A stretch of 64,000 bases of DNA from a phage, in sequence record NC_135730.1; one strand, written 5' to 3'. Position numbers and translations under genes: made by a program. The notes below the pieces were generated by a model. That model was not told the origin of the DNA. It made no database searches and worked only from the letters and a program-made list of their open reading frames with translations. Positions 4,390-38,668 of the stretch are shown in pieces. Every line of letters begins with the position of its first letter. The stretch's first letter is position 1.

Positions 4390-4417
4390 GGGGAGGGGGT
4401 TCTCCCCTCCCCTTTTT
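4390..4417 (+). terminator. intrinsic terminator after the capsid gene
   Basis: GGGGAGGGG-gttct-CCCCTCCCC, 9-bp perfect stem, then TTTTT. Confidence 0.7.
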
Positions 4418-4445
4418 ATTTATTAGGGTTTAACAGGAGTGTCCC

Positions 4446-5291
4446 GTGAAGAGAGCCGTATATCCAGTTGAGTATGATCCGCTATTAAGAGTTTTCAACA
4501 ATCAGTTAAGTTTTTATCAATTTTTAGCACAATATAACCCAGAAATCAATGTTGGTTTATCAGCCCTGCTGCCACCAACAGAATTCGTTATTGGCAGTGT
4601 TCACTATCCATGTAGAACGATTGTAGACTTCTTTGAGAAGATTGCAAAACATACAGGCCTGCCAATTGATACTGGTATTTCAACTATCCGTATGGGTGTT
4701 ATTCTTCTGTTCTTCACAGAGAACCTTGATGAAAGCACTTTAACACTGCAAAGCGGGGATGTCAATATCACCCTCACCCCGTCAGTGTTTAAAGAGGTAG
4801 ATGCTGCTTTCCAAGTTTCCGTGGCAGAGGGGCATCTATGGGACCCTGTAGGGATGCCTAAAAAAGTGACCATAAACGATGAGCAATGCAACATTGTTTA
4901 TGAAGAAGATACCCAAACTTTCACCATTGAGTGGCCTAAGAAACGTTCTCAGGTTGTAAATCTTGGACTGGTTTCTACGATAGCTCCACCGCCTGAACCA
5001 GAACCGGAGCCGCCTGTAGGTCCTACTGAACCTGGTGGTGACGGTGAAGAATCCCCAGATCCGGCTGCACCGGGAGGCACTGAGCAGGATCCTGAACAGG
5101 CACAAGAATCAAGATCTTCTCGCAGTGATATTGATGCCATACTGCAGCAGGCCGCAGCTCTTAACAACGAAGATGACAAAAGTGGTTCAAAAGATGCACT
5201 CCAAACCTTCGCCAAAGAGCACGGTGTTACCTTAAGTAAGGCAAAAACTTTCCAAAATATGATGAAAGATTTTGAGGCTGCACTGGCATAA
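4446..5291 (+). CDS. hypothetical virion-associated protein with Pro/Glu-rich linker
   Basis: GTG start 8 nt after AGGAG; PPPEPEPEPPVGPTEPGG low-complexity linker; followed by a terminator. Confidence 0.4.
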   Translation: MKRAVYPVEYDPLLRVFNNQLSFYQFLAQYNPEINVGLSALLPPTEFVIGSVHYPCRTIVDFFEKIAKHTGLPIDTGISTIRMGVILLFFTENLDESTLTLQSGDVNITLTPSVFKEVDAAFQVSVAEGHLWDPVGMPKKVTINDEQCNIVYEEDTQTFTIEWPKKRSQVVNLGLVSTIAPPPEPEPEPPVGPTEPGGDGEESPDPAAPGGTEQDPEQAQESRSSRSDIDAILQQAAALNNEDDKSGSKDALQTFAKEHGVTLSKAKTFQNMMKDFEAALA

Positions 5292-5298
5292 TTTTGTT

Positions 5299-5336
5299 AA
5301 GGCCCCTTCCAAATCAGGAATGGGGCTTTATTTTTA
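5299..5336 (+). terminator. intrinsic terminator
   Basis: AAGGCCCC ... GGGGCTTT extended hairpin followed by TTTATTTTT. Confidence 0.5.
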
Positions 5337-5350
5337 CGAGGTATTTTCAA

Positions 5351-5971
5351 ATGGCATGGTATGAAGATGAAGAGATTATCCCGTCCCCGCCTAACCATGA
5401 TGGTGTAGTCGATACCCCAGAAGAACCACCAAAAGAAGATCCTGTACTTCCGGAACCTGATCCAGACCAACCTCTTATCAATATTATGAGGTTGTTGCTC
5501 GGCAATGTTGATGAGGAAACTCTCCCTGATGAGGTAATTAAAACATTCCTTGACATGGAGAAGTTGAAACTAAATTATCCGGCAGATCCTGATAAGCTAC
5601 CTCTGCTCAAGTACAATGTGCTTGTGCAACTTGTGCGGTGGCTAATGATGCAGGAAGTGTCCAGCGGTAATGCAAGTATAACTTCCCGTCTGGAAAAAAT
5701 AGGTGATGAGACCATAGAGATTCGTGGTGGATCTTCCTACGCTCAATGGAAAGATTTCCTTGATTGGCTGCTGGCACACCCAGACTATGTAGATTCTGAG
5801 CTAGATGCTTACAGCAGAATGATTATCATTGGTGGTGTTCGTGTAGATGAAGGAATTCGGGTTAAATTTAATGAAAACAGCAACGGGCCGTTCGATGTCC
5901 AGGGTATTACACCTATCAGTGGTCTAAATAACCAACCTCCCCGCCACCCAAGACGCAAACGCAGTTTTTAA
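5351..5971 (+). CDS. hypothetical protein with Pro-rich acidic N-terminal region
   Basis: ATG 5351 downstream of the terminator at 5299-5336; track start 5294 lies inside the terminator hairpin. Confidence 0.35.
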   Translation: MAWYEDEEIIPSPPNHDGVVDTPEEPPKEDPVLPEPDPDQPLINIMRLLLGNVDEETLPDEVIKTFLDMEKLKLNYPADPDKLPLLKYNVLVQLVRWLMMQEVSSGNASITSRLEKIGDETIEIRGGSSYAQWKDFLDWLLAHPDYVDSELDAYSRMIIIGGVRVDEGIRVKFNENSNGPFDVQGITPISGLNNQPPRHPRRKRSF

Positions 5972-5977
5972 AAATTG

Positions 5978-6006
5978 TTGCTTTTGATGTATCTTTGTGG
6001 TAAAAT
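5978..6006 (+). promoter_or_regulatory. sigma70-like promoter with extended -10
   Basis: TTGCTT -17- TGgTAAAAT. Confidence 0.4.
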
Positions 6007-6024
6007 ACATTAGTGAGGGATATA

Positions 6025-6483
6025 ATGCTAAAGGTTAAATGTCAAACAAGGTTCAACCTAAAGCGTTTAGATAGCTTCTACAAAGAACTTGTGAGACTTG
6101 AAAGTAAAACAATAACCTACGGCTTTTATGATGAACCTCACCCGTCAGGCTTAAATATGGCAACATTGGCAGCCATTCACAACTTCGGTTGGAACGGGCT
6201 GCCTGTTCGCAATTTCATGGAGACAGCCTTTGCATTTCACAGCACTCAACTACAGACCTTGACAGAAAAATTGTTGAGAGCTATGGCTAGAGGATCAAGT
6301 GCAGAGGCTATTCTTAAGCAGATGGGGGACACAGGGGCCAAAGCTATCCAGTTTGTTATTGAGGCTGGGCAGTTTAGTAATCCTACTGTTAGCGAGCAGT
6401 GGGCACAAGAGAAAGGCTTCAACGAGGCTATGCGGCATTACGATGTGCTGCTTGAATCTGCAACCTTTAAAATCGGACAGTAA
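6025..6483 (+). CDS. hypothetical head-tail connector protein
   Basis: ORF between capsid and tail genes, downstream of promoter 5978-6006; start taken as ATG 6025 (track GTG 6013). Confidence 0.35.
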   Translation: MLKVKCQTRFNLKRLDSFYKELVRLESKTITYGFYDEPHPSGLNMATLAAIHNFGWNGLPVRNFMETAFAFHSTQLQTLTEKLLRAMARGSSAEAILKQMGDTGAKAIQFVIEAGQFSNPTVSEQWAQEKGFNEAMRHYDVLLESATFKIGQ

Positions 6484-6498
6484 AAATAAGGGGGTTGA

Positions 6499-6924
6499 GT
6501 GGCAGCAGGTTATAAGCTGATAGGAAAGAACAGACTAATACCTCGTAAAACATTCAAAGGTCGCCACAGAGTGTATAACAAAACAGTTGGTGGCCCTTTT
6601 GCCAACGAGGGGTTAGAACTTGAGTATGAAGAGTTTGATGTCTTAGAGTGTGTTGTGCAGCCGTTGACAGGAAGGGCAGCCAAAGATTACTCCTCTCAAA
6701 TAAACCCTGAAGGTGACAGACAGTACGAGGCTTTTACAGTTTACTCCTCAACCAAGTTGTATAGTCCGGATGAAGGAACATATGCAATGGCTGACCAAAT
6801 TCAGCTGCCTGACATCCGTGGTGACTTGAAATGGTTTACCGTTTTAAAATGCGATGCATATGTTACCTCCGGCGGCGGGAGATATAGATTTTTTGTGGTA
6901 GAAGAGCCTGAAGGAGAGAACTGA
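6499..6924 (+). CDS. hypothetical head-tail joining protein
   Basis: 141-aa ORF, GTG start after AGGGGG; position in the connector region. Confidence 0.3.
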   Translation: MAAGYKLIGKNRLIPRKTFKGRHRVYNKTVGGPFANEGLELEYEEFDVLECVVQPLTGRAAKDYSSQINPEGDRQYEAFTVYSSTKLYSPDEGTYAMADQIQLPDIRGDLKWFTVLKCDAYVTSGGGRYRFFVVEEPEGEN

Positions 6925-7475
6925 TGGAAGCTTTCGAAAAAGTTTTTTCTGATCTTGAAACAACCATTGCTAAGCTCGTCAAGGTTGCCACAGGAAGAAC
7001 TGTAGTTCTGGCAGAAAGCTCTACCATACCGAAGCCGGAAGGTGAGTTTGTACTTTTACAAACCTTAGCGATCAATCCCACCACTTGGGAAGATAATGAA
7101 TTTCAAGATGCGGAGGGTAATGCTTACGTCACCCACAGCTACACTGTTACTTATCTATTAACAGCTTATCGTGGCAGGGCATATGCTGCACTTAGCAGAG
7201 TATTGCAAGCAATAAACCTTCCAATGTTTTATGACAAGTATTTCCCTCTGGGATCGTGCTTTGCCTACTCTAACAATTCAACAATCTCACCTCAAAGAGT
7301 GCCGTTGAATAAGCAGACGTATGAAAATAGAGCCACTGTGATGCTGACATTTAACGTAAGGTTTGTTGAAACAGACATTGGGGCTTTTGAGGATCTTGAG
7401 GGAATTAAGGCTGAAATAACCACACACTTCCCTTCACCCAATTCTGGTAAAGCGGTTACAGACAGTGGTCAGTAA
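6924..7475 (+). CDS. putative neck / tail completion protein
   Basis: 183-aa ORF directly upstream of the major tail gene; start overlaps the upstream stop; RBS AAGGAGAG. Confidence 0.35.
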   Translation: MEAFEKVFSDLETTIAKLVKVATGRTVVLAESSTIPKPEGEFVLLQTLAINPTTWEDNEFQDAEGNAYVTHSYTVTYLLTAYRGRAYAALSRVLQAINLPMFYDKYFPLGSCFAYSNNSTISPQRVPLNKQTYENRATVMLTFNVRFVETDIGAFEDLEGIKAEITTHFPSPNSGKAVTDSGQ

Positions 7476-7547
7476 TCGTTATAGTTGTGTAGTGTAATGA
7501 TTACACTGCGTGTTTGATATCCGTGCACAGATATTAAGAGGAAACAA

Positions 7548-8924
7548 ATGCCATATTTAGATAAAGTGGTAGATGTTACAGTTAACCTCGGAACCCAACC
7601 TATTGACACTGTAGGTTTCGAAACTCCCCTGTTCATCGCTATCCACAACAACTTTACTGAGCGAGCTCGCGTATATGCAGAGCTGGATCAGATGGTGGAA
7701 GATGGTTTCGCACAAGGCTCTGCAGCGTATGAGTTTGCAGCAAAAGCTTTTGGTGGTGTATTCCCTCCACAATACGTTATGATCGGCAGACAGGCCAAAG
7801 AAAAGACAACTGTAGATTTTAAAGGTATTGCTGCCGCAGCTGATACCGATGTCGTAATGACTATTGCAAAAGGTAGCTACAATACTTCTTTGATAGTACC
7901 TATCTCTGGTGGAACAGGTGCAACTCAGATTGCAGAGTCAATGAAGACTAAGATCGAAGCAGATGATAACTTGGACGATATCACTGTAGAGGCTGCCGAT
8001 GGTGTTATCACCATCACTGGTGACTGCACTGTTGGTTATCATACTGGTAACTATACAATCAAAAATATCGCCAATGCTGAAAAACCTTCTACAGTAGTTG
8101 ATAAGATCAATGCTGAGCGTGACAATTGGTACTTCCTGTGCCATGAAGACCACACCGACATTGAAGCATGTGCGAAGTGGGCTCAGGCTAACTACAAGCT
8201 GCATGTCTACTCTACTGCAGAAGATGTGACTGGTAAAGATAATAACATCGCCACCAAACTGATGGCTGCACAATATGACAGTGTTGGCATGTACGATCCT
8301 CGTGCTGATAAAGATTTTCCAGAGGGTGGTATCGTAGGCGCTATGGCATCCAACGATCCGTCTTACGGTGACAGCTTGCATTTAAAACAGATGCCTGGTG
8401 TGATTGCACCATCTATGACTTTAACTCAGCGTATGTCGATTTGGGAAAACCACGTTAACTTCTACAGAATGATTAACGGTGTTGGCGCTTTCTGGGAAGG
8501 CAAGTGTGCTTCAGGTCAGTATGCAGACGCTATTCGTTTTGCGCACTGGATCAAGTTCAGATCTGAAGAATCCATGTTTGGGTACATGCATCGTCGCTCT
8601 AATATGGGTTTAAGCATGAAGATGTCTGATGATGATCTTCCGGTTATCAAGTCTGTTCTGATGAACAACCCGATCAATACTGGCATTAAGAATGGCGCGA
8701 TCCTGACAGGTTTTGACGAAGACAACAATGTGTTCTACGACCCGATCATCACAGTTCCTAAACGTGCAGAGATCCCAACCAATCAGTTGGCTGCTCGTGT
8801 TCTGGAAGGTGTGAAAGTAGAACTGGTGTATAATAACGCCCTGCACTTCGTTCGTATCCGGATCAACGTCCTTCTGGACAAAGTTGGTTCTAAATCCACC
8901 AATGCTGTTGCAATGACTGAATAA
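7548..8924 (+). CDS. major tail protein, sheath-like (458 aa)
   Basis: Large ORF followed by a ~157-aa tube-like ORF, chaperones and tape measure, as in contractile-tail gene order; a T5-type long tube protein is not excluded. Confidence 0.4.
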   Translation: MPYLDKVVDVTVNLGTQPIDTVGFETPLFIAIHNNFTERARVYAELDQMVEDGFAQGSAAYEFAAKAFGGVFPPQYVMIGRQAKEKTTVDFKGIAAAADTDVVMTIAKGSYNTSLIVPISGGTGATQIAESMKTKIEADDNLDDITVEAADGVITITGDCTVGYHTGNYTIKNIANAEKPSTVVDKINAERDNWYFLCHEDHTDIEACAKWAQANYKLHVYSTAEDVTGKDNNIATKLMAAQYDSVGMYDPRADKDFPEGGIVGAMASNDPSYGDSLHLKQMPGVIAPSMTLTQRMSIWENHVNFYRMINGVGAFWEGKCASGQYADAIRFAHWIKFRSEESMFGYMHRRSNMGLSMKMSDDDLPVIKSVLMNNPINTGIKNGAILTGFDEDNNVFYDPIITVPKRAEIPTNQLAARVLEGVKVELVYNNALHFVRIRINVLLDKVGSKSTNAVAMTE

Positions 8925-8934
8925 GGAAGACTAG

Positions 8935-9408
8935 ATGGAAACTCAAATTTTAACTCCTTATGCGTATGACCCTAAAAAGGTCAAACTGTACCTGATGCAG
9001 CAGCGTGTCACTGGCTTCGCTGCTGACACCAAGATCGTTGTTTCAAGAAACGAAGACAACATCTACCCTCACGTTGGTGTGGATGGCGAAATGTCTGCGG
9101 CCCTGTCTCGTAACCAATCTGGTGTTATGACTGTATCTTTGCAGAACACTTCTGTATGGAACGCTTACCTTTCTGACTGGCAGAAACAGGCATCGATTAC
9201 TGGTCTGGTATTCTTCCCAGTTCTGCTGGAAGGTAGCCAGGGTCCTGGTATTTCCACAATCGGTTGGATCCAGAAACAGCCTGACCTGACTTACGGAACC
9301 GAAGTAGGTCAACTGGACTGGGATATCGGTATTCTGGATGCATGGCTCAACCGTGATAACATCACTGGTGCTCTTACTGGCCTCGCAGGTCTTGCAGGTA
9401 TTATCTAA
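8935..9408 (+). CDS. putative tail tube protein
   Basis: 157-aa ORF between the sheath-like gene and the tail assembly chaperones; RBS AAGGAAG. Confidence 0.4.
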   Translation: METQILTPYAYDPKKVKLYLMQQRVTGFAADTKIVVSRNEDNIYPHVGVDGEMSAALSRNQSGVMTVSLQNTSVWNAYLSDWQKQASITGLVFFPVLLEGSQGPGISTIGWIQKQPDLTYGTEVGQLDWDIGILDAWLNRDNITGALTGLAGLAGII

Positions 9409-9424
9409 GGGCACACTTTAGCAT

Positions 9425-9451
9425 AAGCCTCACCTTCGGGTGGGGCTTTTT
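9425..9451 (+). terminator. intrinsic terminator (TTCG tetraloop)
   Basis: AAGCCTCACC-ttcg-GGTGGGGCTT then TTTTT. Confidence 0.6.
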
Positions 9452-9498
9452 GCTTTTATGGTTTTGACACACGTTCTTGAATTGCTTGAAAGGTTAAA

Positions 9499-9527
9499 TT
9501 GACAATGCACCGTAATCATGGTAAAAT
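9499..9527 (+). promoter_or_regulatory. sigma70-like promoter with extended -10
   Basis: TTGACA -17- TGgTAAAAT, downstream of terminator 9425-9451. Confidence 0.55.
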
Positions 9528-9570
9528 ACACAAATATGGTGCACAACATGACTAATAAGGATGCTATAAA

Positions 9571-10044
9571 ATGGCTATAAACTTTAGACCTACAACAGAG
9601 ATTGATTTAGCAGGGCACAACTTTGTGATCACCCACTGGGGACCGATGAAAGCAATGAAAAACATGCCTAAAATCGGTAAGATTGTGGCTGTCCCGCTAG
9701 GTGCTATCGGTGGATCTATTATCTCAGGCGGTCAGAACATGGCAGAGGTCCTTCCTACTGCTCTGGCTTACCTGTTCCAAGAACTTGATGATAACTCTAT
9801 TGAAGAGCTATTTAAAATCTTGTTCGAAGATATTACCGTAGATGGTGTGGATAAGCTTAACCCGGATGTTGTGTTTGCGGGGCATCTGCTGGAGATGATT
9901 AAGCTGGCAGGTAAGGTTCTGGAGGTTAACTACGGCTGTTTTTTCACACAAGACGGTTTAGGAAGCCTTCTGGAGATGTTACAGCAGATGGGTATGATTC
10001 AGCAGGTGAACAACCTGGATCAGACTCCGGAAGAGCAGGAATAA
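9571..10044 (+). CDS. tail assembly chaperone (gpG-like)
   Basis: 157-aa acidic C-terminus ORF directly upstream of the tape measure gene; overlapping -1 frame is open through to 10304. Confidence 0.5.
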   Translation: MAINFRPTTEIDLAGHNFVITHWGPMKAMKNMPKIGKIVAVPLGAIGGSIISGGQNMAEVLPTALAYLFQELDDNSIEELFKILFEDITVDGVDKLNPDVVFAGHLLEMIKLAGKVLEVNYGCFFTQDGLGSLLEMLQQMGMIQQVNNLDQTPEEQE

Positions 10045-10304
10045 GCAAGGTTGTTGTGAGGGCCAGTGAGTGGGCAGCCAAGAACAGTTCACTCAACTGG
10101 TTCGACTTTCTTTGGTGCAGGGTGCTCAAGAATTTCAAAGGGGAAAATTTTGAATCGCTAAATCTTGCAGATATGGCGTATTTCCTGAAGCTCTGTGAGT
10201 ATCTTGATATCGAAGAATTCCTAGATACCGTCCAAAACAGGGAAATGGAGCGGGAGCAGAAGGCTGCCGCAGCTGCTGCGAAAGCTAAGCGCAGGAGAGG
10301 ATAA
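9571..10304 (+). CDS. putative -1 frameshift extension of the tail assembly chaperone (gpGT-like fusion)
   Basis: Slippery heptamer T_TTT_TTC at 9939-9945; -1 frame open from 9930 to stop at 10302-10304 with no intervening stop; arrangement analogous to lambda G/GT. Confidence 0.35.
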
Positions 10305-10308
10305 TCTA

Positions 10309-10347
10309 AGGGCCGGATTCCTTTTCTGGGATCTGGCCCTTTTTATT
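10309..10347 (+). terminator. intrinsic terminator before the tape measure gene
   Basis: AGGGCCGGAT ... ATCTGGCCCT hairpin followed by TTTTATT. Confidence 0.45.
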
Positions 10348-10358
10348 ATGAGGAAACC

Positions 10359-12695
10359 ATGGCTACAAACAAAATAGTTGCCACAACAGTCAACAAGATT
10401 GGCTTTGAGATAGAGAACTCCTCCTACAAAAAAGCTGTAGAGAAAATTCGCAGTATTGGGAGGGAGTTCAGGAAACTGGGCGAGGATTTTAACTCAGCCA
10501 ACCCCATGAGTAGATGGCAGGCGGTAGCTGTTAAAACCCAGCAGACAATGCAGAGGGTTGCCAGACAGCAATCTCAGGCAAATGCTAAACTGCACAGAGA
10601 GAGCGTAGCACAGGCCAAGAAAGAGGCTGCAGTAAGGGCTGCAATAGAACGTAGGGAGAATGCGAGACGTAAACAAGCTGTAGGTAATCTTACCGCTAAA
10701 AATCCAGAAATGGCTAGGATGCGTAAGTTCTACCAGCAGCAAGCTAAAGAGGCCAAAAAGGCTGCCAAATCTGCACCAGTGTCTTACGGTGGTTATAAGG
10801 CACCTAAGGCAAGAGTTTTGGCTAATGCCAAATCTTTCAAATATATCCCCGGTAACCCTAATATGGGTGGTGTGGCTTCCGACCCTAACCTTGTGAAAGC
10901 TCAGACAGCCGCTATGAATCGTTATCATAGACAGCTAAGAAGAGACAGTAAAGCTGGTATGGATAATAGGCTTATGTCGGATCGTGAGGCAAGGAGAACC
11001 CACCTCTACAACTCCGCGATAAGACTTTCTGCCAAGTATGGGGCCGGATTCCGTGGAAGCTTGCCAGGATACTCAGAGTTAGAGTCCAGGTTTGCTCGCG
11101 GAGAGATGAAGAAGTCAACCTTTAACGCCCACCTGTCAGCGCTGCAGTCTGGGTTTAAAAGCGCCACCAGCCAAACGCTTACACTAGGCGATGCCATGAG
11201 AGACTTACGTAGATCTGTTATTAATGCAACAGCTGCGTATACAGCTTTTTCTGGATTTGCTGCGGTTAACAGATCTGGTCACATGATGGAGGGGGCAAGT
11301 GCTGCTCTTACTGCTGTTACTGGAGATCCAAACAAAGCCAACAGTGAGGTTGCGTTTGTCCAGCAAGAGGCTATGCGTCTTGGTTTTGATCTCAAATCTG
11401 GTCTTCAAGGTTACGCTCAAATGTCGGTAAACGCCAAAAACCAGATGACAAATCAGGAAGTGCATGAGCTGTTTTCTGCATACTCACAGTATGCTGCTGC
11501 TTATGGTGCCGATGAGGTAAAATACCAGCGCGGTATTATGGCAATCCAACAGATGCTCGGTAAAGGGCAAGTAATGTCTGAAGAACTGAAGCAACAACTT
11601 GCTGAAGCATTGCCTGGTGCATACGAACCTTTTATCAAGGCCACCAAAGAGGCTTTTGGTCTTTCTGAACTCTCCATGGATCAGTTCATGGACATGATGA
11701 AGAAAGGTGAGGTTAAAACAGCCAAGATCATGAAGTATGTGGCTAAGTACATGAACGAGGCATCTGCAGCTGGTTATGAAAGAATGCAGAAGTCTAACGT
11801 GCTGGCAGAAAACAGACTGAAAACCTTCATCGAACTGACTCGTCAGAAACTGTTCACCCGTTGGTCTGACGAACTAACAGAGTTCTATTATACACTAATC
11901 CGCACTGGTGAGACTCTGCAATTTGTGTGGGATGCCTCTGGTGATTTTGTTAGCGGGTTTGTGAGAGGCCTTAACTGGGTAGTTGGTGAACTAAACAACA
12001 CTATAGTCAAGATCCGCATGTTTTTCCTTGAATGGGGGATTAAATGGGGATTCATAACAGCTAAGACGAAGGAATATTCTGAAGAGCTTCATGACACCTT
12101 TAGCTATGCTAAATGGGCAGGGTTTGCTGCTGCCATCATGCTGGTAGTCAACGCCCTAACAAAAGGTTTTGTCATGGCATCCATGCTTGTAAAAACCTTT
12201 AAATTCCTTAACTCTCTAAGGGGTGCAGCTGGAGCAGCGGGTGCCGCTACTACAGAAGGGTCTGGTGGTGGAGCTCCGGCAGGAAAAGGTGGAGGTGGCC
12301 TCAAGACACCTGGTGGCAAAGTTGGTCTGCTCGGTAAGCTGGGCATTATCGGTACAATACTAAGCGCCGGGGAATTATTTAATGACCGTTACAACCCACT
12401 AAGTGAAAGAAATCAGCAGCTGGATACTATCAGCGATATGATTCGCAAAGATATCATATCGGGAGGTAACGGGTTTGTTAATCCTTTGGACACCTTACCT
12501 GGCGGGACTCTTCCGTTGCCAGGTGGCCCTGGTTTTGCTTCTCAATTAAGAACTATGGAAATGCTACCTTTAGAGATCAGTGATGGGAAAATCACGATTT
12601 CAATAGATGAGGGTGAGTTTAACAAAATATTTGATGCAAAACTTGAGTGGGAGAACAATAAAGATATCAACTTCATGTCTACCGACCTTTGGTAA
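10359..12695 (+). CDS. tail tape measure protein
   Basis: 778-aa ORF with helical N-terminal region and Gly-rich segment (GAAGAAGAATTEGSGGGAPAGKGGGG); located after the chaperone pair. Confidence 0.7.
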   Translation: MATNKIVATTVNKIGFEIENSSYKKAVEKIRSIGREFRKLGEDFNSANPMSRWQAVAVKTQQTMQRVARQQSQANAKLHRESVAQAKKEAAVRAAIERRENARRKQAVGNLTAKNPEMARMRKFYQQQAKEAKKAAKSAPVSYGGYKAPKARVLANAKSFKYIPGNPNMGGVASDPNLVKAQTAAMNRYHRQLRRDSKAGMDNRLMSDREARRTHLYNSAIRLSAKYGAGFRGSLPGYSELESRFARGEMKKSTFNAHLSALQSGFKSATSQTLTLGDAMRDLRRSVINATAAYTAFSGFAAVNRSGHMMEGASAALTAVTGDPNKANSEVAFVQQEAMRLGFDLKSGLQGYAQMSVNAKNQMTNQEVHELFSAYSQYAAAYGADEVKYQRGIMAIQQMLGKGQVMSEELKQQLAEALPGAYEPFIKATKEAFGLSELSMDQFMDMMKKGEVKTAKIMKYVAKYMNEASAAGYERMQKSNVLAENRLKTFIELTRQKLFTRWSDELTEFYYTLIRTGETLQFVWDASGDFVSGFVRGLNWVVGELNNTIVKIRMFFLEWGIKWGFITAKTKEYSEELHDTFSYAKWAGFAAAIMLVVNALTKGFVMASMLVKTFKFLNSLRGAAGAAGAATTEGSGGGAPAGKGGGGLKTPGGKVGLLGKLGIIGTILSAGELFNDRYNPLSERNQQLDTISDMIRKDIISGGNGFVNPLDTLPGGTLPLPGGPGFASQLRTMEMLPLEISDGKITISIDEGEFNKIFDAKLEWENNKDINFMSTDLW

Positions 12696-12706
12696 TAAAC
12701 TGTGCA

Positions 12707-12730
12707 GGGGGGCTCCGGCCCCCTTTATTT
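12707..12730 (+). terminator. intrinsic terminator after the tape measure gene
   Basis: GGGGGC-tccg-GCCCCC then TTTATTTT. Confidence 0.6.
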
Positions 12731-12738
12731 TATCGGTG

Positions 12739-12767
12739 TTGTAAAAACGGCTATTTTATGATACAAT
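12739..12767 (+). promoter_or_regulatory. sigma70-like promoter with extended -10
   Basis: TTGTAA -17- TGaTACAAT, immediately after the tape-measure terminator. Confidence 0.45.
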
Positions 12768-12800
12768 ATCTAGATGGTATCGGAGTGTCCTGGAGAGGTT

Positions 12801-13685
12801 ATGCCAAGCAATATAGTTGATGAAAAAGACCTGTACAAGCCTCAAGAGGTTAAATCTCCAAAGGCTGAAAAGGCAGAGCAGCAAACTGAAAGCGATGTAA
12901 AGTACACTATGTTTGTCAGCGGTCTTAACTATGGCGGTCGCAATACGGAGATGAAGGGTAAAAACTTTACTAACGATCTTGCCATTATCTTCGATCAGGT
13001 TGAGAATTACTCTTTCAAACATTCTGTTGATAAGACTGGGTTTGCGGTGGAAGATAAATCTACCCTGTCAGACCACGCTGTAATTAAAGATGGTGTATTT
13101 TCTTTTACTGGTAGGGTAAATACATCCCCACACATAATCTATGAGCAAAACTACATTGATAGGAATACTGACTCTAAAAACCCTGCAGCATCTATGCGAC
13201 CAGGCGCTGCATTGGAGGCTTTGACTGAGATTATCAATAAGCGACAGTTGGTTTCTTTGGTTACCGAGGAGAGACTTCTTGAGAACTACATCATAACCAG
13301 TCTTTCTGCCAACAAGTCTGTTGGTGAAGGAGCTGCAATGGTGTTTGATGTAGAACTTACAGAGTTCCGCACATTCTACTTGAATAAGGTTGTTAATGCA
13401 ACTGTATACAGCAATCCTAAGAAAGTAGGCAAGACCCAACAAAAAGGCGCTGTCAACGACTGTAAGAATGGTAGTAACGTAGGTAACAAGAGGGACACAG
13501 GAGCATTCGCAGACACTGCATCCACAAACGCTGCAGAGGAGTGGCAGCCATACAAATCTATGATGTGGACAGATGAAAACGGTGTTACCCAATCGGCTGC
13601 GGATTGGTATTATCAGGAATATGGAAGACCTTCTACCATAGTCCCATCTGAGCAGGGAAACTACAACAAAGTTAACGGGAAATAA
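12801..13685 (+). CDS. putative baseplate / tail protein
   Basis: First ORF after the tape measure; ATG 12801 with RBS GGAGAGG downstream of promoter 12739-12767 (track start 12774). Confidence 0.3.
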   Translation: MPSNIVDEKDLYKPQEVKSPKAEKAEQQTESDVKYTMFVSGLNYGGRNTEMKGKNFTNDLAIIFDQVENYSFKHSVDKTGFAVEDKSTLSDHAVIKDGVFSFTGRVNTSPHIIYEQNYIDRNTDSKNPAASMRPGAALEALTEIINKRQLVSLVTEERLLENYIITSLSANKSVGEGAAMVFDVELTEFRTFYLNKVVNATVYSNPKKVGKTQQKGAVNDCKNGSNVGNKRDTGAFADTASTNAAEEWQPYKSMMWTDENGVTQSAADWYYQEYGRPSTIVPSEQGNYNKVNGK

Positions 13686-13697
13686 GGGGAGCGTATA

Positions 13698-14078
13698 ATG
13701 GAGCTTAAAGATTGGTGCATAATCACCTTTGTGTGGGACATTGACGGCTTTCCTGACCAAACCATGCGTGTTGTTTTAGACAATGAAACGTATGAAATGC
13801 GTATGCAATGGAATGAGAGGGATGAGTCCTGGTGGTTATCTCTTGGTCCAGTAGGTGATAGCCCTTTAGTAACCAGAAAAGTAACAGCTTGTCAAGATAT
13901 TTTAGACGGACTGCATTACAGAGATGATTTACCGAAAGGAAGACTGATGGCGCTGTCGTTTAAAGACGATCAATATTGGGGTAGAGTTGGAAGATATAAC
14001 CTTGGGGCGAGATCTGAGCTACAACTTGTATACGGCACCCCGGTTGATCTTTACAAGGAACAGCAAGGGTTAGAATAA
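13698..14078 (+). CDS. hypothetical tail protein
   Basis: 126-aa ORF with RBS AAGGGGA, inside the baseplate gene run. Confidence 0.3.
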   Translation: MELKDWCIITFVWDIDGFPDQTMRVVLDNETYEMRMQWNERDESWWLSLGPVGDSPLVTRKVTACQDILDGLHYRDDLPKGRLMALSFKDDQYWGRVGRYNLGARSELQLVYGTPVDLYKEQQGLE

Positions 14079-15082
14079 TGGCAGAGTACAGACGTAGAAC
14101 ATGGCGATTATTGTTTGGTCGTCCGGTAGAGCATGGTGGTAAATCAAAAACCAATATCCCAAAATCTGTTGAAAAGAAAGGGGAGAGTGATTCCGGAGTT
14201 TATGAAGTTAGCTCAGACACTGGTGCTGCCAATATAGAGTTTGACATACAAAAGGACAATACCAAAGAGCCAAACAAAGGTTATGTGACAGTTTACAACC
14301 TGTCTGACGATACAGTTAACTATCTGGATATGCATCAGGCTGATGCCCTTGCAGTTATGTTTGAGGCTGGCTATGATGATGAGAACCAGTTAATATTCTC
14401 CGGAACTGTGGAGTTTGTTGAAGACAGATGGGAAGGTCCGACCAGAAAAACTAAGTTCATCTTCGGGGATGGCACTGAGAACATCATTAAGTGCCAAAGC
14501 ACAAGATCTTATCAGAAAGGCACACCTCTGAACTCTGTGCTTAATGACCTGCTGAAGGATATGAACTTGCCAAAAGGTAGGGTTGTTGGTTTTGGAAACC
14601 AGACTTTGCAATACTCTATGGCTTTCTCTGGAAACACTGCAGAGAACCTCCGCAGGTTTGCAAGGCTGACCAACTCCACATTTAGCGTTCAGGATGGGGC
14701 TTTGTATTGGACCAAGGTTGGAAAAAGGTTCAAAGACTCTGTGTTTGAAATAAGTGCAGAGTCTGGGATGCACGGATCTCCTACCCCTAAAAACCCAGAA
14801 CCTGCTAAAAAACGAAAAGCTAAAGCTGCTGCCAAAGGTGGTTCGACATCTAAAAAGAAAAAGAAAAACCCGAGAGAGGATGTTGGCCTTACTGTAACCA
14901 CATGCCTTAACGGAGCTATCCTCCCAGAGTCCACTATTTATCTTAAAAGCAAGCAATATACAGGATTCTATAAGGTGATCACGGTGCATCATAAGGGCAC
15001 CATAGAAGGAGGTGATTACACTACAGAGCTTGGCCTTGGGGAAACAGTGGGTGGAGTTGTTGACAAAACTGAGGAGGTATAA
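14078..15082 (+). CDS. putative baseplate hub protein
   Basis: 334-aa ORF directly upstream of the gpV-like spike gene; start overlaps the upstream stop. Confidence 0.3.
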   Translation: MAEYRRRTWRLLFGRPVEHGGKSKTNIPKSVEKKGESDSGVYEVSSDTGAANIEFDIQKDNTKEPNKGYVTVYNLSDDTVNYLDMHQADALAVMFEAGYDDENQLIFSGTVEFVEDRWEGPTRKTKFIFGDGTENIIKCQSTRSYQKGTPLNSVLNDLLKDMNLPKGRVVGFGNQTLQYSMAFSGNTAENLRRFARLTNSTFSVQDGALYWTKVGKRFKDSVFEISAESGMHGSPTPKNPEPAKKRKAKAAAKGGSTSKKKKKNPREDVGLTVTTCLNGAILPESTIYLKSKQYTGFYKVITVHHKGTIEGGDYTTELGLGETVGGVVDKTEEV

Positions 15083-15759
15083 TGGCAATAAATAGGAAAG
15101 ATGCTGCTGTAAGATCCTTTATAGAAAAAATAATGAGGGACTACCACACCAGTATCAGGGCCAGAGTTGTCAGTGTTGACTACAGTATACCTTCTGCAGC
15201 CGTGCAGCCAATAGCTGAAACTACGTTTGATGACGGAGATGTGGAGAGATACCCTCTTATCTATGACGTTCCAATTCAGGTGATGTCTGCAAACAGCGGA
15301 AAGGCAAGGTTAACACTTCCTATTAAGGCTGGAGATGTTGTAGGATTACAGTTTTCAGAGAGAAATGAAAACAATAACGACGATCAACAAACTCACGGCC
15401 TGTTTCCAGGGTGGGCAATCACCTCTGTCCATTCAGACTCAAACGCTTTACAGATCGATCCTGATAACGTAGAGTTATGGAATGATAGGGTTTATTTTAA
15501 ACTGACACCTTCTGGCGATTTTGAGCTTCAAACACCTGGTGGGACATTACGGTGCGACAGCAGCGGGGAGTTTTCTTTCACTAACGGGGCTGCCAATTTG
15601 CGAGCTGCTGTGGATGGGAATATCAGAATGAATGGTGCCACAATAGACCCATCTGGTAGAATTATAACTGCTGCTGGTGTGGATTTGGATTCATTCTATG
15701 CAGAATATAAAGGTCATACCCACTCTTGCCCTGATGGCGAGACAAGTGGACCGCACTAA
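15082..15759 (+). CDS. baseplate spike protein (gpV / gp5-like)
   Basis: C-terminal apex motif GHTHSCPDGETSGPH resembles the HxH apex of P2 gpV-type spikes; N-terminal OB-fold-like region. Confidence 0.5.
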   Translation: MAINRKDAAVRSFIEKIMRDYHTSIRARVVSVDYSIPSAAVQPIAETTFDDGDVERYPLIYDVPIQVMSANSGKARLTLPIKAGDVVGLQFSERNENNNDDQQTHGLFPGWAITSVHSDSNALQIDPDNVELWNDRVYFKLTPSGDFELQTPGGTLRCDSSGEFSFTNGAANLRAAVDGNIRMNGATIDPSGRIITAAGVDLDSFYAEYKGHTHSCPDGETSGPH

Positions 15760-15771
15760 TAGAGGGCTTTC

Positions 15772-16488: not shown

Positions 16489-16497
16489 GGAGAAATC

Positions 16498-17166: not shown

Positions 17167-17167
17167 G

Positions 17168-19765: not shown

Positions 19766-19769
19766 CATA

Positions 19770-19789
19770 GGGGGCTGTTTGCCCCCTTT
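19770..19789 (+). terminator. GC hairpin / weak terminator
   Basis: GGGGGC-tgttt-GCCCCC followed by only TTT, then the RBS of the next gene. Confidence 0.3.
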
Positions 19790-19800
19790 CAGGAGAAAGA

Positions 19801-23601: not shown

Positions 23602-23608
23602 CTGTTTT

Positions 23609-23636
23609 GCCCTCGCTTCGGCGGGGGCTTTTTGTT
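23609..23636 (+). terminator. intrinsic terminator (TTCG tetraloop)
   Basis: GCCCTCGC-ttcg-GCGGGGGC then TTTTTGTTTG. Confidence 0.65.
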
Positions 23637-23640
23637 TGTA

Positions 23641-23669
23641 TTGCGTATTAACTCAAAATCTGGTAAAAT
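23641..23669 (+). promoter_or_regulatory. sigma70-like promoter with extended -10
   Basis: TTGCGT -17- TGgTAAAAT, immediately after terminator 23609-23636. Confidence 0.5.
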
Positions 23670-23700
23670 AACTATCATGATTGTTTAACCTGGAGGCACA

Positions 23701-24291: not shown

Positions 24292-24292
24292 G

Positions 24293-28200: not shown

Positions 28201-29108
28201 CAAAAATACAGGTAGACTCCGCAGGGAATAAATATGTTGCAGGTATCCAGCTGGGGATGGAAGGGTCTGGGGGCCAAGTTCAATCCTACTTCATGGTTAG
28301 TGCAAACAATTTTGCGGTATACAACCCAGGAAATGGAACAGCAACCCTTGCTTTCGCAATCAAGAACAACCAAGCGTTCTTGAAAGACGCTTTTATAGAG
28401 AATGGCACGATCTCCTCTGCCAAGATCGCACAAGAAATTTCGTCAAACAACTACGATGGCAACGGGTACCATAAATACGGTTGGTATATTAATAAGAACG
28501 GGCACGCCCAATTTATGGATGTGTGGGTGAAAGGCAACATCAACGCCAGTTCTGGTAACTTCACAGGGGCAGTTAACGCCACTAGTGGTACCTTCCGTGG
28601 AGATGTTTATGCCAATAATGGCAGCTTTAGAGGCACCATAGATGCAACCGGAGGTACCTTCCGTGGTCGTGTAGAAGCTTCTGTTATCCGCGCTAACCAG
28701 TTCGAAGGTGCAATTGTTGCACACAGGACTTACGGGGATTGTGCTCCAGTATATAACTCCCAGCAAAGGGTTTGCCGTTGGAGGTGGAGATACGTAGATA
28801 ACGTTTCAGGTCAGGGTAAGAACGTAACATTCTTCTTTAAACTGAATGGTACTCTTGCCAGCTCCCAGCTCAACGTTTGGATAGCCGGACATCAAATCCT
28901 TGCAGGTAAGAAGTACGGAAACGACAACAACGGCATGTGTGCGGTAGGGATAACAGGTCTTGGTGAACAAACCATAGATATTGTTGTTGAAATCTACACA
29001 CCATGGTCAACGTCTTCTGTAACAGGGGTCGCAATATCCTGTCCTACTGTTGTGGTAAGCCGTTCTAACTCAAGCTTCCAAGGACCTTGGAACGAGTCTC
29101 ACGACTAA
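25269..29108 (+). CDS. tail tip / central fibre protein, lambda gpJ-like (host specificity protein)
   Basis: Similarity along the whole protein to lambda J as recalled from memory (YTNNAALVILDYL vs YSNNMAWCLWDML; GYFAITLIPH vs GYFQITATPH; YYWYIRTTNAFG vs YYFYIRSVNTVG; QWGTKIQVD..YVAGIQLGMEG vs MWAVKIEQT..YVAGIGLSMED). Confidence 0.65.
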   Translation: MPIAMIDNIVASARSSSYDWNASKAALADSLNTVTTRTLDKIFEGNKSYRSQQDRQKLLRSSAAPCSVVYGKTRTSGLLAFLEQDSDRTLHCAIVLANHPLEGIEDILIDGNPISSYGDLVSWELHNDRKTSDPFMGTHCPSWSPDMIGRGISWLRASFRFDPNKFPFGLPNVTLVKIGKKCYDPRISKEVYTNNAALVILDYLRTYLKCPDETINWESFKEAANICDEAVKNADGTSERRYTINGEFDMDEAPASIMAEMLKACGADLSYVAGKYGLLVGAYYGPATMTLSEDCVCGEVKIYPEASFDKRSNTITGRFTSPTKGYSETDFPSVFVPEWIEKDGERKIIDIDYRFVTSPYQAQRVSAIFLRRARAGRIIEVTCNMRGFKFKPGRYVTMDLPSIGIVGQEMRVLEWEFTKKGGVKVKLRQDAKEWNDATGQLPDSGDVDIPISPSGVAQPQNFRYSVLQAGEVTHGVLAWDNVGTYAQNIVQVRKNGEIVWTAQTVEQFVRVEGLTKGSYTATVVATSYKGGVSPEAYCEFNIQAPEAPVSVEVKQGYFAITLIPHSRDLASVSTQYDFWTSGMTRLPDTSDATVTSNATRMGVGSTWTSEGLQNDKVYYWYIRTTNAFGSSQFVECAARCYTSIEDLMPQIDAEFKKTETYKELMSTLDSSIEEVENRVTELNRYMDGRVDEAFQQLGDRIGAVVTETTQKFEDVNGNITALDRKLVAAQNKFTNDLNTESGRLASLIETTNKATTDLLNKKTEALDEKLVAAKGELVEQIEGVESGYLAGDKTLDGKINTQRTELDASILSTNQATVDLLNRTSETLDQKISQTNATVSKNYTTLDGKITTAKTDLNTLIANTNKATTDLLNQKTSALSEQITSARGEISTNKQAIDALDGKLTSTKTALDATISDTNKATVDLINGTASAIRQELAVAKQEIIDDVGDVSEIRAAVATTSKAVTDLEGKVNAQWGTKIQVDSAGNKYVAGIQLGMEGSGGQVQSYFMVSANNFAVYNPGNGTATLAFAIKNNQAFLKDAFIENGTISSAKIAQEISSNNYDGNGYHKYGWYINKNGHAQFMDVWVKGNINASSGNFTGAVNATSGTFRGDVYANNGSFRGTIDATGGTFRGRVEASVIRANQFEGAIVAHRTYGDCAPVYNSQQRVCRWRWRYVDNVSGQGKNVTFFFKLNGTLASSQLNVWIAGHQILAGKKYGNDNNGMCAVGITGLGEQTIDIVVEIYTPWSTSSVTGVAISCPTVVVSRSNSSFQGPWNESHD

Positions 29109-29113
29109 CCTTT

Positions 29114-29143
29114 AAAGCCCCGCTTCGGCGGGGTTTATTTTTA
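29114..29143 (+). terminator. intrinsic terminator (TTCG tetraloop)
   Basis: AAAGCCCCGC-ttcg-GCGGGGTTT then ATTTTTA. Confidence 0.65.
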
Positions 29144-29151
29144 TGCTCAGA

Positions 29152-29180
29152 TTGACTATTGTTACAAAATTTGGTAAAAT
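29152..29180 (+). promoter_or_regulatory. sigma70-like promoter with extended -10
   Basis: TTGACT -17- TGgTAAAAT, immediately after terminator 29114-29143. Confidence 0.55.
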
Positions 29181-29213
29181 ACCTTGTAGAGATTTTCATA
29201 CCGGAGGAGTGAC

Positions 29214-35126: not shown

Positions 35127-35137
35127 GAGGAGGTGTT

Positions 35138-35452: not shown

Positions 35453-35461
35453 ACAAAGGTC

Positions 35462-35493
35462 AGAACGGAAAGGACTCCGTTCTTGCATTTTGT
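35462..35493 (+). terminator. intrinsic terminator
   Basis: AGAACGGA ... TCCGTTCT hairpin followed by TGCATTTTG. Confidence 0.45.
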
Positions 35494-35511
35494 TCTCTAA
35501 AGTGTTAAAAT
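35483..35511 (+). promoter_or_regulatory. sigma70-like promoter with extended -10
   Basis: TTGCAT -17- TGtTAAAAT, overlapping the 3' arm of terminator 35462-35493. Confidence 0.45.
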
Positions 35512-35541
35512 AGTCCTAAGGAATTTTCTCAGGAGAACGCG

Positions 35542-36585: not shown

Positions 36586-36596
36586 AAAGAGGGTAA

Positions 36597-36863
36597 ATGA
36601 AACTAACTCAGTTTTTATGGGGACTGGTTGCGGCATCTGATGACCCTACGAAAGTGTCCCAATCTAAGCTATGGTCGAACATAGGCATGGCGGTGATGAC
36701 TGGGGTGTTTATTCATATGGGGTATAATGATACGCTTCCTGAATGGTATGCGTGGATATACGCGCCTTCAGTAGCTTGCCCCCAGCTTATTAGCAAATTC
36801 ATCTCGCTCCGGTGGGGTTGCCAGCACCCTGACCACGTTAAAAACGAAGAGCAAAAAGCTTAA
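36597..36863 (+). CDS. small hydrophobic protein
   Basis: 88-aa ORF with hydrophobic stretches (IGMAVMTGVFIHMG); RBS AGAGGG. Confidence 0.3.
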   Translation: MKLTQFLWGLVAASDDPTKVSQSKLWSNIGMAVMTGVFIHMGYNDTLPEWYAWIYAPSVACPQLISKFISLRWGCQHPDHVKNEEQKA

Positions 36864-36872
36864 GGAGAAATC

Positions 36873-38618
36873 ATGGCGCAAGACATGACAAGCTTTGAGC
36901 AGGCGGTAGATCAAGTAATTGTTGATTCTGAACGTTTGCACCTGATTGTCAACGGTAACGCTGTGGATGAAGTTGTCGTAGAGGATGGGACCACCATCCC
37001 TACGGTACGAAAAGCCATGCTTGACACCCTTTATTTTAAAACGCCACCGATCCCTTGGGCGTATGGTGCATCCACAACAGTTTTTAACCAGCTGTATGAG
37101 TTTAAAGGGGATACAGGCCCTCAGTGGTGGTACGCTCCCGCAGCATCAAAATCTAACCCGGTTAGAATGCCAGCAGATCCTTCACAATCTCCAAACTGGA
37201 GATTATACACCGACTCTGCAGTAATGGCAAAATACTACGCAAAACTTAACAGCCCAAGGTTCGAAGGTGACCCGCGAGTACCTACACCTCCAATGGACGA
37301 TAAGTCAGAGTCCATAGCAAACACAGAGTTTGTTGTTGACTATGTTGATAGCATATTTAAAGCCATGGAAGGGATGAAAGTTACTGTAGGGTCTTTGGTG
37401 GTAAAAGGTCTTACAGAACTCGCTAACACTATAGTTGGTGGCACCCTTACCTTACATGGACCTGTTAATGGGGCAGATTCTACTGCACGCTTCAGGAATC
37501 TAATCCTCACGGCAAATACTTCTACACTTACTTTTGCGTGGAGCGATCCTAAGCATGCAGACTGGAGAAGCACAGAGCTGCAACCTCATGAAGTGTCCAC
37601 CCACAGGATTATAGCTGACACTATAACTTCTGGGAAACCAGTGGCTAATAATAACGATGTGCATTTTGATGGTCTAGGTAATAACTTTTTTGACTACGTG
37701 TACATTCGTGGTAATGCCATGAAGGCAGCAACCGAACCGACATTACAGGTTGATGGGACCACCAGGGTTAAGAACCTTGAGGTGACAGGTACCGTTACAG
37801 GGATAACCTACTCTGTCGATGGCACCATGATCTACCCTAGCTATATTGAAAGCACGGGTGATGCATTGATAAATGGCGATTTGGAGGTTGGCGGGTCTGT
37901 AGTTATTCGAGGTACAGCCTCTATCCAAAATATAGCTCTGAATACTCTAAGAGTCAATGAGCGTGCAACTTTTGAAGGAGAAGGGCTTACAGCTAATAAA
38001 GGTACAATTACCGAGCTGACAACCACCACTTTAACTGCAACAACTGCAAACTCTGAAAACTGCAACGTTACCAGAAACTTGCAGGTAAATGGAGATGTTA
38101 GTTTAAACGCAGCAGGGACGGGCACCACCTACCTTCACAACCTTGAAATATCCGGCACAGTGACTGGGTGGCTGCCAGACTTCTCTAATGTCAACTTTGT
38201 TTGTAATGGCATTAACTCCAGTGGCAAGATAACCACCTCTCAAGAAATTGAGGCGGGTAAAACCATTACTGCCCCTACTTTCCACGCAGGAAAGGTAGAT
38301 TTTGATTTAGAGGAGGTTGACGCGTCCAGTGGGACATGGACACCTAACGGGCAGGCCAGTATGTATGTTGTCCACGCGAAAGGGGATTTTACAATAGGAC
38401 AATGGCCTGGTACATCAGCGGAAGATAAACCTTATCCATTCACTGCGGTTATCTATGTCATTCAGGATGCTGTAGGTCACAACGTGACTTTGCACGATAA
38501 GTATGCTATCCTGTCGGCAACGCCTGTTATTAATAACAAGGCTAATAGTGTTACCTTGCTGCAATTAACATATTGTGGTGTTGGTGATATCGTAGACGTA
38601 GTAATTGCACAACGTTAA
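36873..38618 (+). CDS. tail fibre protein
   Basis: 581-aa ORF with fibre-like N-terminal motif (SIANTEFVVDYV) and Thr/Gly-rich repetitive beta segments; RBS AAGGAGA. Confidence 0.45.
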   Translation: MAQDMTSFEQAVDQVIVDSERLHLIVNGNAVDEVVVEDGTTIPTVRKAMLDTLYFKTPPIPWAYGASTTVFNQLYEFKGDTGPQWWYAPAASKSNPVRMPADPSQSPNWRLYTDSAVMAKYYAKLNSPRFEGDPRVPTPPMDDKSESIANTEFVVDYVDSIFKAMEGMKVTVGSLVVKGLTELANTIVGGTLTLHGPVNGADSTARFRNLILTANTSTLTFAWSDPKHADWRSTELQPHEVSTHRIIADTITSGKPVANNNDVHFDGLGNNFFDYVYIRGNAMKAATEPTLQVDGTTRVKNLEVTGTVTGITYSVDGTMIYPSYIESTGDALINGDLEVGGSVVIRGTASIQNIALNTLRVNERATFEGEGLTANKGTITELTTTTLTATTANSENCNVTRNLQVNGDVSLNAAGTGTTYLHNLEISGTVTGWLPDFSNVNFVCNGINSSGKITTSQEIEAGKTITAPTFHAGKVDFDLEEVDASSGTWTPNGQASMYVVHAKGDFTIGQWPGTSAEDKPYPFTAVIYVIQDAVGHNVTLHDKYAILSATPVINNKANSVTLLQLTYCGVGDIVDVVIAQR

Positions 38619-38628
38619 TATATATCTA

Positions 38629-38655
38629 ACCGCTCCTGACGGGGCGGTTTTCTTA
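38629..38655 (+). terminator. intrinsic terminator
   Basis: ACCGCTCC-tgac-GGGGCGGT then TTTCTT. Confidence 0.5.
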
Positions 38656-38668
38656 TCTGGAGAACACA

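Follow-up and report, generated by a model that had tools for sequence, protein, structure and literature searches.

Predicted sigma-70 extended -10 promoters and intrinsic terminators in the virion-gene cluster of an rV5-like Escherichia coli phage

The closest described counterpart of the promoters considered here is found in the genome paper of Escherichia coli phage rV5 (Kropinski et al. 2013, Virol J 10:76, PMC3606486), which lists 33 promoters of sigma-70 type, 11 of them with an extended -10 element, together with 20 terminators. Its Table S4 also holds "putative late promoters, TggTAaAAtA", a motif located upstream of late genes that the authors compared to the T4 late word TATAAATA; the paper reports no homologues of gp55, gp33 or gp45 and notes gp11 as Srd-like. 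Phages of the Vequintavirinae are reported to lack an RNA polymerase of their own. Promoters with a TGn/-10 element form a recognised sigma-70 class for which contact to the -35 is not needed (PMC2988021), and in T4-type phages PeSL (promoter-early stem-loop) cassettes have been proposed to mediate module shuffling (PMC2839356, PMC4122927). Here we analyse the promoters and terminators of the virion-gene cluster in a 64,000-nucleotide stretch of phage DNA (NC_135730.1, hereafter the window), and consider it fairly likely that the elements are host sigma-70 extended -10 promoters and intrinsic terminators, predicted to partition, tune and border virion-gene modules.

At positions 4300-24300, the window is matched over the full length, and at 97-98% identity, by >100 Escherichia phages belonging to the genus Vequintavirus, and the window represents an rV5-like E. 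coli myovirus of this genus, with genomes of ~137 kb; the rV5 reference NC_011041 runs antiparallel to it. Six promoters, at 5978, 9499, 12739, 23641, 29152 and 35483, had been proposed in an initial annotation made from the letters of the window, and all six are found at these positions. They correspond to P056, P051, P048, P040, P036 and P030 of rV5 Table S4, i.e. the same elements at orthologous positions in the same genus. The six sites were already catalogued in 2013, and the finding repeats a published table: the sites are real, ordinary and already known. PMC3606486 lists P036 and P051 twice, as sigma-70 and as 'late' promoters, and P51 is annotated as a sigma-70-type promoter in RefSeq NC_011041. 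Likewise, t060, t052, t050, t049, t041 and t028 in Table S4 represent six of the nine terminators in the window. The published table differs in that it omits the site at 1455, the terminators at 5301 and 29115 and the cassette duplication described below, in that P048 is aligned on another register, and in that the motif is likened to T4 late promoters, where sigma-70 is favoured here. The 100-138 kb segment of rV5 was covered through its annotation and the published table only. Literature searches returned no transcript-mapping or expression time-course for any Vequintavirus, rV5-like, PVP-SE1 or Vequintavirinae member; a HIDEN-SEQ preprint on Bas54 is silent on phage promoters, and nothing relevant to the word TGGTAAAAT was among the matches listed.

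Promoter anatomy in the window and across five genera

Seven promoter sites are present among the virion genes of the window, all on the + strand. The first, at 1455..1483 in the gap that separates the portal gene from the one after it, lies outside the range of the initial annotation and reads TTGCAA-17-tgaTAAAATa, the number giving the spacer in bp. The others are situated at 5978..6006, upstream of the neck/tail-completion gene (TTGCTT-17-tggTAAAATa), at 9499..9527, upstream of the tail assembly chaperone (TTGACA-17-tggTAAAATa), at 12739..12767, after the tape measure gene (TTGTAA-17-tgaTACAATa), at 23641..23669, upstream of the gp40-gp37 module (TTGCGT-17-tggTAAAATa), at 29152..29180, upstream of the baseplate J/wedge gene (TTGACT-17-tggTAAAATa), and at 35483..35511, upstream of the gp30-gp28 fibre genes (TTGCAT-17-tgtTAAAATa). 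The 17-bp spacer and the TGn extended -10 element initially ascribed to six of these sites hold at all six, and TAAAAT is indeed shared by five, the sixth (12739) reading TACAAT; with the 1455 site included, TG occupies -15/-14, one base 5' of the hexamer, in 7/7 sites. The -35 hexamers had been called good throughout, which is accurate for 9499 (6/6 matches) and 29152 (5/6) but not for the other four, where TTG only is kept and 3-4 of 6 bases match. Downstream of each site lies a leader of 18-43 nt with a Shine-Dalgarno sequence, leader lengths being counted with the starts of the genes behind 1455 and 12739 corrected relative to the rV5 annotation.

For the gene that follows the portal gene, the rV5 annotation puts the start 86 nt inside the portal gene (window region 1363-1503). 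The orthologue begins downstream of the promoter-bearing gap in the four other genera compared below, and ATG 1503, which has a GGGGAA Shine-Dalgarno sequence, is for that reason the likelier start; positions 1436-1502 would then be intergenic.

The promoter sites occur far beyond chance. The composite motif TTG-N17(incl. TGN)-TAMAAT is found 7 times in the window, compared to 0.14 +/- 0.35 expected, with 0/100 shuffles reaching 7, and all seven copies are intergenic and lie on the coding strand. The word TGNTAAAAT has 8 copies, all on the + strand, against 3.7 expected. Within 1-44305, intergenic bases number 1236 (2.8%) and hold 6/6 of the + strand TGNTAAAAT copies, for which our own arithmetic gives a chance of 0.028^6, i.e. 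~5e-10. The commonest 8-mers common to different intergenic gaps are TGGTAAAA, GGTAAAAT and GTAAAATA; the promoter motif is the top recurrent intergenic 8-mer and recurs at non-orthologous slots of one genome. Since matches to a generic sigma-70 consensus remain at shuffle level (41 versus 33.4 +/- 6.3 and 40 versus 35.9 +/- 5.1), only the TGn/TAAAAT class stands out, and not promoter density in general.

The window was compared to KB57 (Klebsiella, Mydovirus), CR8 (Cronobacter, Certrevirus), EC152 (Enterobacter, Seunavirus) and Hena1 (Erwinia, Henunavirus), the sheath proteins of which are only 53-59% identical to that of the window. The gap behind the portal gene carries TTGCAA-17-TGnTAAAATa in all five genera, and the neck gene is preceded by TTG[AC]TT-17-tggTAAAATa, again in all five. 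Directly behind the tape-measure terminator, orthologues of 12739 with TGaTAAAAT or TAAACT are present in all genera, and an orthologous terminator and promoter precede the baseplate J/wedge gene (gp36 orthologue) in all genera as well. The same element also occupies the orthologous gap ahead of the gene of the large terminase. Specific to Vequintavirus are the sites at 9499, 23641 and 35483; a counterpart of 9499 was sought in EC152, CR8 and Hena1, and none was found.

Across the five genera, 29 sites from structural regions were aligned. T is present at -35 in 28/29 and at -34 in 29/29 sites and G at -33 in 22/29, with no conservation from -32 to -30. A pyrimidine (T or C) is found at -17 in 24/29 sites, and a purine occupies -16 in 27/29, which creates the TRTGn context. 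TG at -15/-14 is present in all 29, as dictated by the collection pattern, and the hexamer is TAAAAT in 26, TAAACT in two and TACAAT in one, with T-12, A-11 and T-7 in 29/29; an A at -6 follows in 22/29. TTG is placed exactly 17 bp from the -10 in 22/29 sites, while in the remaining seven this place is taken by the T-rich tail of a terminator. The purine at -16 and the -35 spacing are features that were unused in collecting the sites. In CR8, the terminator T-tract (TTTTTT, TTTTAA) occupies the place of the -35 in two promoters, so the -35 appears to be dispensable in this phage.

Identity between genera reaches 93% at the 13 core positions, whereas it has fallen to 36% at the other 41 (-45 to +8), near the 29% identity of unrelated cassettes within the window. 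Judged from these alignments, the promoter anatomy is under selection, with the pairing of terminator and promoter kept at orthologous slots. The same comparison bears on the possibility that the conserved words represent RNA-level leader signals for processing or translation, or mere common descent, and not promoters. Such a view could draw on the position of the sites 18-43 nt upstream of start codons and on the shared ancestry of orthologous slots. However, a conserved TTG 17 bp 5' of the hexamer, combined with TG, is a geometry of DNA recognition and not of an RNA fold, the core is retained where spacers and flanks have diverged, and the word recurs at non-orthologous slots within one genome. 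In addition, the Shine-Dalgarno sequences are separate from the sites and downstream of each, and an Rfam scan of the whole window gave no family match. We regard the RNA-level or common-descent view as very improbable.

In the more distant Aeromonas phage PhAER-4 and the phi92-like ESCO13, no enrichment of TGNTAAAAT was detected, and the TAAAAT class therefore seems limited to the Vequintavirinae. ESCO13, of the sister subfamily Stephanstirmvirinae, nevertheless has a terminator after its tape measure gene, followed 13 nt later by TTGACA-18-tgtTACAAT (14701-14761), and further canonical TTGACA promoters behind the terminase and portal genes. With a canonical promoter in the same slot, the terminator-promoter layout would be older than the TAAAAT word.

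The factor that reads the sites

TTG at a fixed 17 bp, TRTGn and a TAnnnT hexamer point to sigma-70 regions 4.2, 3.0 and 2.4. We propose that host RNA polymerase would read the consensus as TTG at -35, a 17-bp spacer, TRTGn and TAAAAT followed by A, with sigma-70 as the probable recognition factor. The likeness to E. coli sigma-70 extended -10 promoters comprises the TG 5' of TAnnnT, the purine at -16, an optional or partial -35 and the 17-bp spacer where TTG is present; the difference is that the hexamer here is nearly fixed as TAAAAT, and not scattered around TATAAT, and that an A follows in three quarters of the sites. The initial description of the sites as host-type promoters thus stands as far as the anatomy is concerned, which is that of sigma-70 over 29 sites and five genera, but this anatomy still allows a class-specific phage factor. 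No gene of the rV5 annotation is labelled as a sigma factor, and no dedicated sigma-factor search was made.

The initial annotation had also argued that the arrangement is not typical of activator-dependent late transcription, which does not follow. Phages Mu and P2 have four activator-dependent late promoters each. T4 is reported to have ~50 late promoters, and the presence of several promoters in a late cluster is consequently no argument against activator dependence.

Several points weigh against the sigma-70 assignment. The sites were gathered by a TGnTA.A.T search, so that TG and part of the -10 are ascertained, and sites in orthologous slots are not statistically independent. The A at the third -10 base (28/29) and the A at -6 (22/29) are unexplained by plain sigma-70 optimisation. 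Strong unregulated sigma-70 promoters would, moreover, fire right after infection, which is odd for genes assumed to be late, and for this phage group neither transcript maps nor reporter or in vitro transcription results were present in the searched literature.

The published alternative is a set of T4-type late promoters, with a phage sigma-like protein recognising TggTAaAAtA. The motif lies upstream of late genes and resembles TATAAATA (PMC3606486), the third -10 base is non-consensus and near-invariant, and the A at -6 stretches the conserved block to TAAAATA in 22/29 sites; as in T4, a short A/T-rich -10 word is present in many copies in the virion-gene region of a large myovirus without its own polymerase. 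However, the word differs, as 0/7 window sites read TATAAATA and the consensus is TAAAATA after TGn. T4 late promoters, furthermore, have no -35, whereas the T-35, T-34 and G-33 bases are kept here in 28, 29 and 22 of the 29 sites, with TTG at 17 bp in 22, and TTG and TRTGn are contacts of sigma-70 regions 4.2 and 3.0. The report of no gp55, gp33 or gp45 homologues by the rV5 authors (no homologue search of our own was made) and the annotation without a named sigma factor also speak against a T4-type late system. We reject the T4 late-promoter reading on the basis of the different word and the conserved -35, considering it quite improbable, and the sigma-70-type reading appears better supported than this analogy.

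A reading of TTGC as a MotA box was rejected, too. T4 middle promoters are similar in having a good -10, a frequent TGn and, in some of the present sites, a TTGC-like word near the -35 (TTGCTT at 5978). The MotA box, (a/t)(a/t)(a/t)TGCTTtA, and the -10 are 12 +/- 1 bp apart (PMC2988021). A MotA-like box in the present sites, where TTG occupies -35 to -33, would instead end ~15 bp from the -10, its G/C being 2 bp further upstream than MotA geometry permits, and TGCTT is found at only 1/7 window sites (5978).

A further alternative emerges from the remaining promoters of these genomes. The rV5-listed promoters outside the TGnTAAAAT class have TTGAC in 30/31 cases and a variable -10, with A as the third base in 8/31, and 30/31 are located in non-structural regions, the exception P048 being the second published reading of 12739. 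In the structural-region class, 2/29 sites have TTGAC and 28/29 carry an A as third base of the -10, within the near-invariant TGnTAAAAT. TTGACA-type sites in the non-structural part of the window are situated at 51587(+), 51573(-), 53926(+), 63738(+) and 45235(-). The split between the classes is partly definitional, as each set was gathered by its own pattern, while the reciprocal variability is not due to collection. Because the near-invariant, non-consensus TAAAAT differs from the TTGACA-type promoters, class-specific control by a phage factor is possible: sigma-70 would read the sites as a separate class, and early in infection a phage protein would block -35-dependent TTGACA promoters or redirect the polymerase, sparing or even favouring TGn/-10 promoters, which would in this way form the 'late' class. 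Such a protein might, for example, bind sigma-70 region 4 in the manner of T4 AsiA and thereby block -35 recognition. This possibility is favoured by two reciprocal promoter classes in the same genomes and by the reported immunity of TGn/-10 promoters to AsiA (PMC2988021).

A candidate link to promoter-class switching, which we treat as a lead and not as evidence, is an early protein of 347 aa, described for rV5 as Srd-like and encoded at 50536-51579 (-), at the divergent TTGACA promoters 51573(-)/51587(+). Its PHROG matches include 'decoy of host sigma70' (E 6.6e-14) as well as 'Srd anti-sigma factor' (E 4.8e-9), but the best PHROG match is a family labelled HNH endonuclease (E 1e-110). For T4 Srd, the reported link is to stimulation of RNase E and not to sigma. 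Pfam detected no domain in the 347-aa protein and no regulator domain in ten non-structural open reading frames (ORFs). The partly definitional class split counts against the switch as well, as does the fact that no AsiA-like protein was identified, although no direct search of the full genome for AsiA, MotA or gp55 homologues was made; the literature, in turn, offers no timing data for the phage group. Taken together, we consider a class switch of this kind unlikely. In a bolder form, the TRTGnTAAAATa promoters may be a late class that is switched indirectly, through a phage protein disabling TTGACA-type initiation in an AsiA-like manner without MotA, and, separately, the cassettes may be recombination joints for tail-fibre modules, a proposal that we hold to be speculative, with the chances against it.

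Terminators, cassettes and module borders

Returning to the reading as host sigma-70 promoters paired with terminators, the morphogenesis cluster, which corresponds to the range of the initial annotation, has all its genes on the + strand. These include the portal gene (5-1435), the major capsid gene (3358-4365) and the neck/tail-completion gene (6025-6483), and further the sheath gene (7548-8924), followed by the tube gene and the tail assembly chaperone, the tape measure gene (10359-12695), baseplate genes and several tail fibres, and finally the gene of a 1878-aa Ig-like protein (38669-44305). The chaperone ORF at 9571-10044 is followed by a short ORF at 10056-10304, a pair that overlaps in the rV5 annotation and looks like the usual chaperone frameshift pair.

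The structural cluster contains nine intrinsic terminators, each a hairpin with a U-tract, with folds of -15 to -26 kcal/mol. Eight of these, at 4390, 5301, 9425, 10308, 12706, 23609, 29115 and 38628, are G+C-rich hairpins of the coding (+) strand, placed at gene ends and leading directly into a U-run. A promoter is missing behind four, namely those after the major capsid gene (4390..4412, -21.3 kcal/mol, rV5 t060), between the 4446-5291 ORF and the gp57 orthologue (5301..5327, -16.6 kcal/mol, z -3.5, followed by UUUAUUUUU; absent from rV5 Table S4), just 5' of the tape measure gene (10308..10341, -26.1 kcal/mol, rV5 t050) and 5' of the gene of the 1878-aa Ig-like protein (38628..38649, -15.1 kcal/mol, rV5 t028). 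EC152, Hena1 and CR8 likewise have a terminator in the gap leading to the tape measure gene. The other four are located after the sheath and tube genes (9425..9448, -21.4 kcal/mol, z -5.7, rV5 t052), after the tape measure gene (12706..12725, -16.7 kcal/mol, rV5 t049, kept in five genera), after the gp41 tail fibre gene (23609..23628, -16.9 kcal/mol, rV5 t041) and after gp37 (29115..29136, -16.5 kcal/mol, absent from the rV5 list). The ninth, at 44321..44342, is bidirectional, ends the structural cluster and equals rV5 t026/t027. A hairpin in the sheath leader (7488-7512) was considered as a terminator and discarded as not significant (z -1.5).

Four promoters had been placed within 10 bp of a strong terminator, which is correct for three of them. 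The promoters at 12739, 23641 and 29152 follow the strong hairpins 12706-12725, 23609-23628 and 29115-29136 (-16.5 to -16.9 kcal/mol), and their -35 begins 12-15 nt past the stem, equivalent to 2-6 nt past the T-tract. For 35483, by contrast, the hairpin at 35462..35483 (+) overlaps the -35 and is weak (-12.8 kcal/mol, z -2.1, no clean U-run, unlisted for rV5), i.e. a doubtful terminator. The promoter at 9499 is located 50 nt past the terminator 9425-9448, and that at 5978 is without a terminator.

The notion of modular insulation of gene groups, also put forward initially, is incomplete, as no promoter follows the terminators at 4390, 5301, 10308 and 38628 and the genes behind them consequently need read-through. 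Dosage control is thus a better description of the layout than complete insulation; from the gene order, it is more likely that the terminators tune expression levels than that they insulate fully.

The cassettes at 23641 and 29152 are paralogous copies. The gap 23602-23700, comprising terminator, promoter and leader, aligns to the gap 29109-29213 with a score of 27, compared to 7.9 +/- 1.3 for shuffled sequences (z ~15). Other cassette pairs mostly match only in the functional core, and two more pairs surpass all 300 shuffles, namely 9409-9570 with 23602-23700 (z 6.8) and 1436-1502 with 12696-12800 (z 5.7). Between the duplicated cassettes lies the gp40-gp37 module (23701-29108), which the rV5 annotation describes as similar to tail proteins of Yersinia phage PY54 and a J-like central fibre. 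A tblastn search with this module in the four other genera gave no match, whereas gp36, downstream of the module, is 50-60% identical in all four. KB57 possesses its own, independent duplicated cassette pair around a lineage-specific gene. In comparison to the congener APECc02, homology breaks at 22788-23604, 27257-28053 and 39969-42916; homology returns precisely at the 23609 terminator after the first break, and the second and third breaks fall inside genes, leaving one breakpoint on a cassette.

These arrangements suggest that the cassettes act as module joints, and recombination at the cassettes may have occurred, with thin evidence. PeSL cassettes appear similar in that a terminator hairpin and a sigma-70-type promoter are repeated and that copies flank variable genes, with the one breakpoint on a cassette in agreement. 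They differ in that PeSLs carry early promoters in hyperplastic early regions, while the present cassettes are found among virion structural genes, and in that here only one pair is markedly similar beyond the functional core and the breakpoint is a single one.

Two side observations concern sequence records. A run of 10 N at 57390-57399 falls within an rIIA-like gene; alignments to close relatives continue straight through, the span on the record being 10 bases shorter than that on the query (3491 versus 3501), and the run looks like an inserted mask or gap and not biology. In addition, ~16-18 records labelled 'Campylobacter jejuni phage' (e.g. MG065659, MG065661) are 95-99% identical to the window over tens of kb, which suggests mislabelled or contaminant entries in the public collection.

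Proposed working of the cluster and its meaning for the subfamily

Based on the arrangement of the sites, we propose that the virion-gene cluster would operate as follows. Seven promoters and nine terminators would cut the ~44-kb cluster into at least eight units. Terminators placed behind abundant products, such as the capsid and the sheath/tube, and before low-copy ones, such as the tape measure and the giant Ig-like fibre, would lower downstream expression, and a promoter 2-6 nt past the T-tract would restart transcription at a set level regardless of upstream input. Since TGn and the -10 suffice for sigma-70, the -35 could shrink to TTG or yield to the terminator T-tract, as in CR8. The cassettes would double as module borders, with the 23641/29152 duplication bracketing a genus-specific tail-tip module.

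The rV5-like phages of the Vequintavirinae are broad-host-range E. coli phages present in typing, biocontrol and therapy collections. For these phages, the reading as sigma-70 extended -10 promoters would correct the published analogy with T4 late promoters and provide a cheap, concrete experimental handle. For engineering, the cassettes would mark natural insulated slots where receptor-binding modules have entered in nature. If true, the class switch would represent AsiA-like logic without MotA in a large, clinically used phage subfamily.

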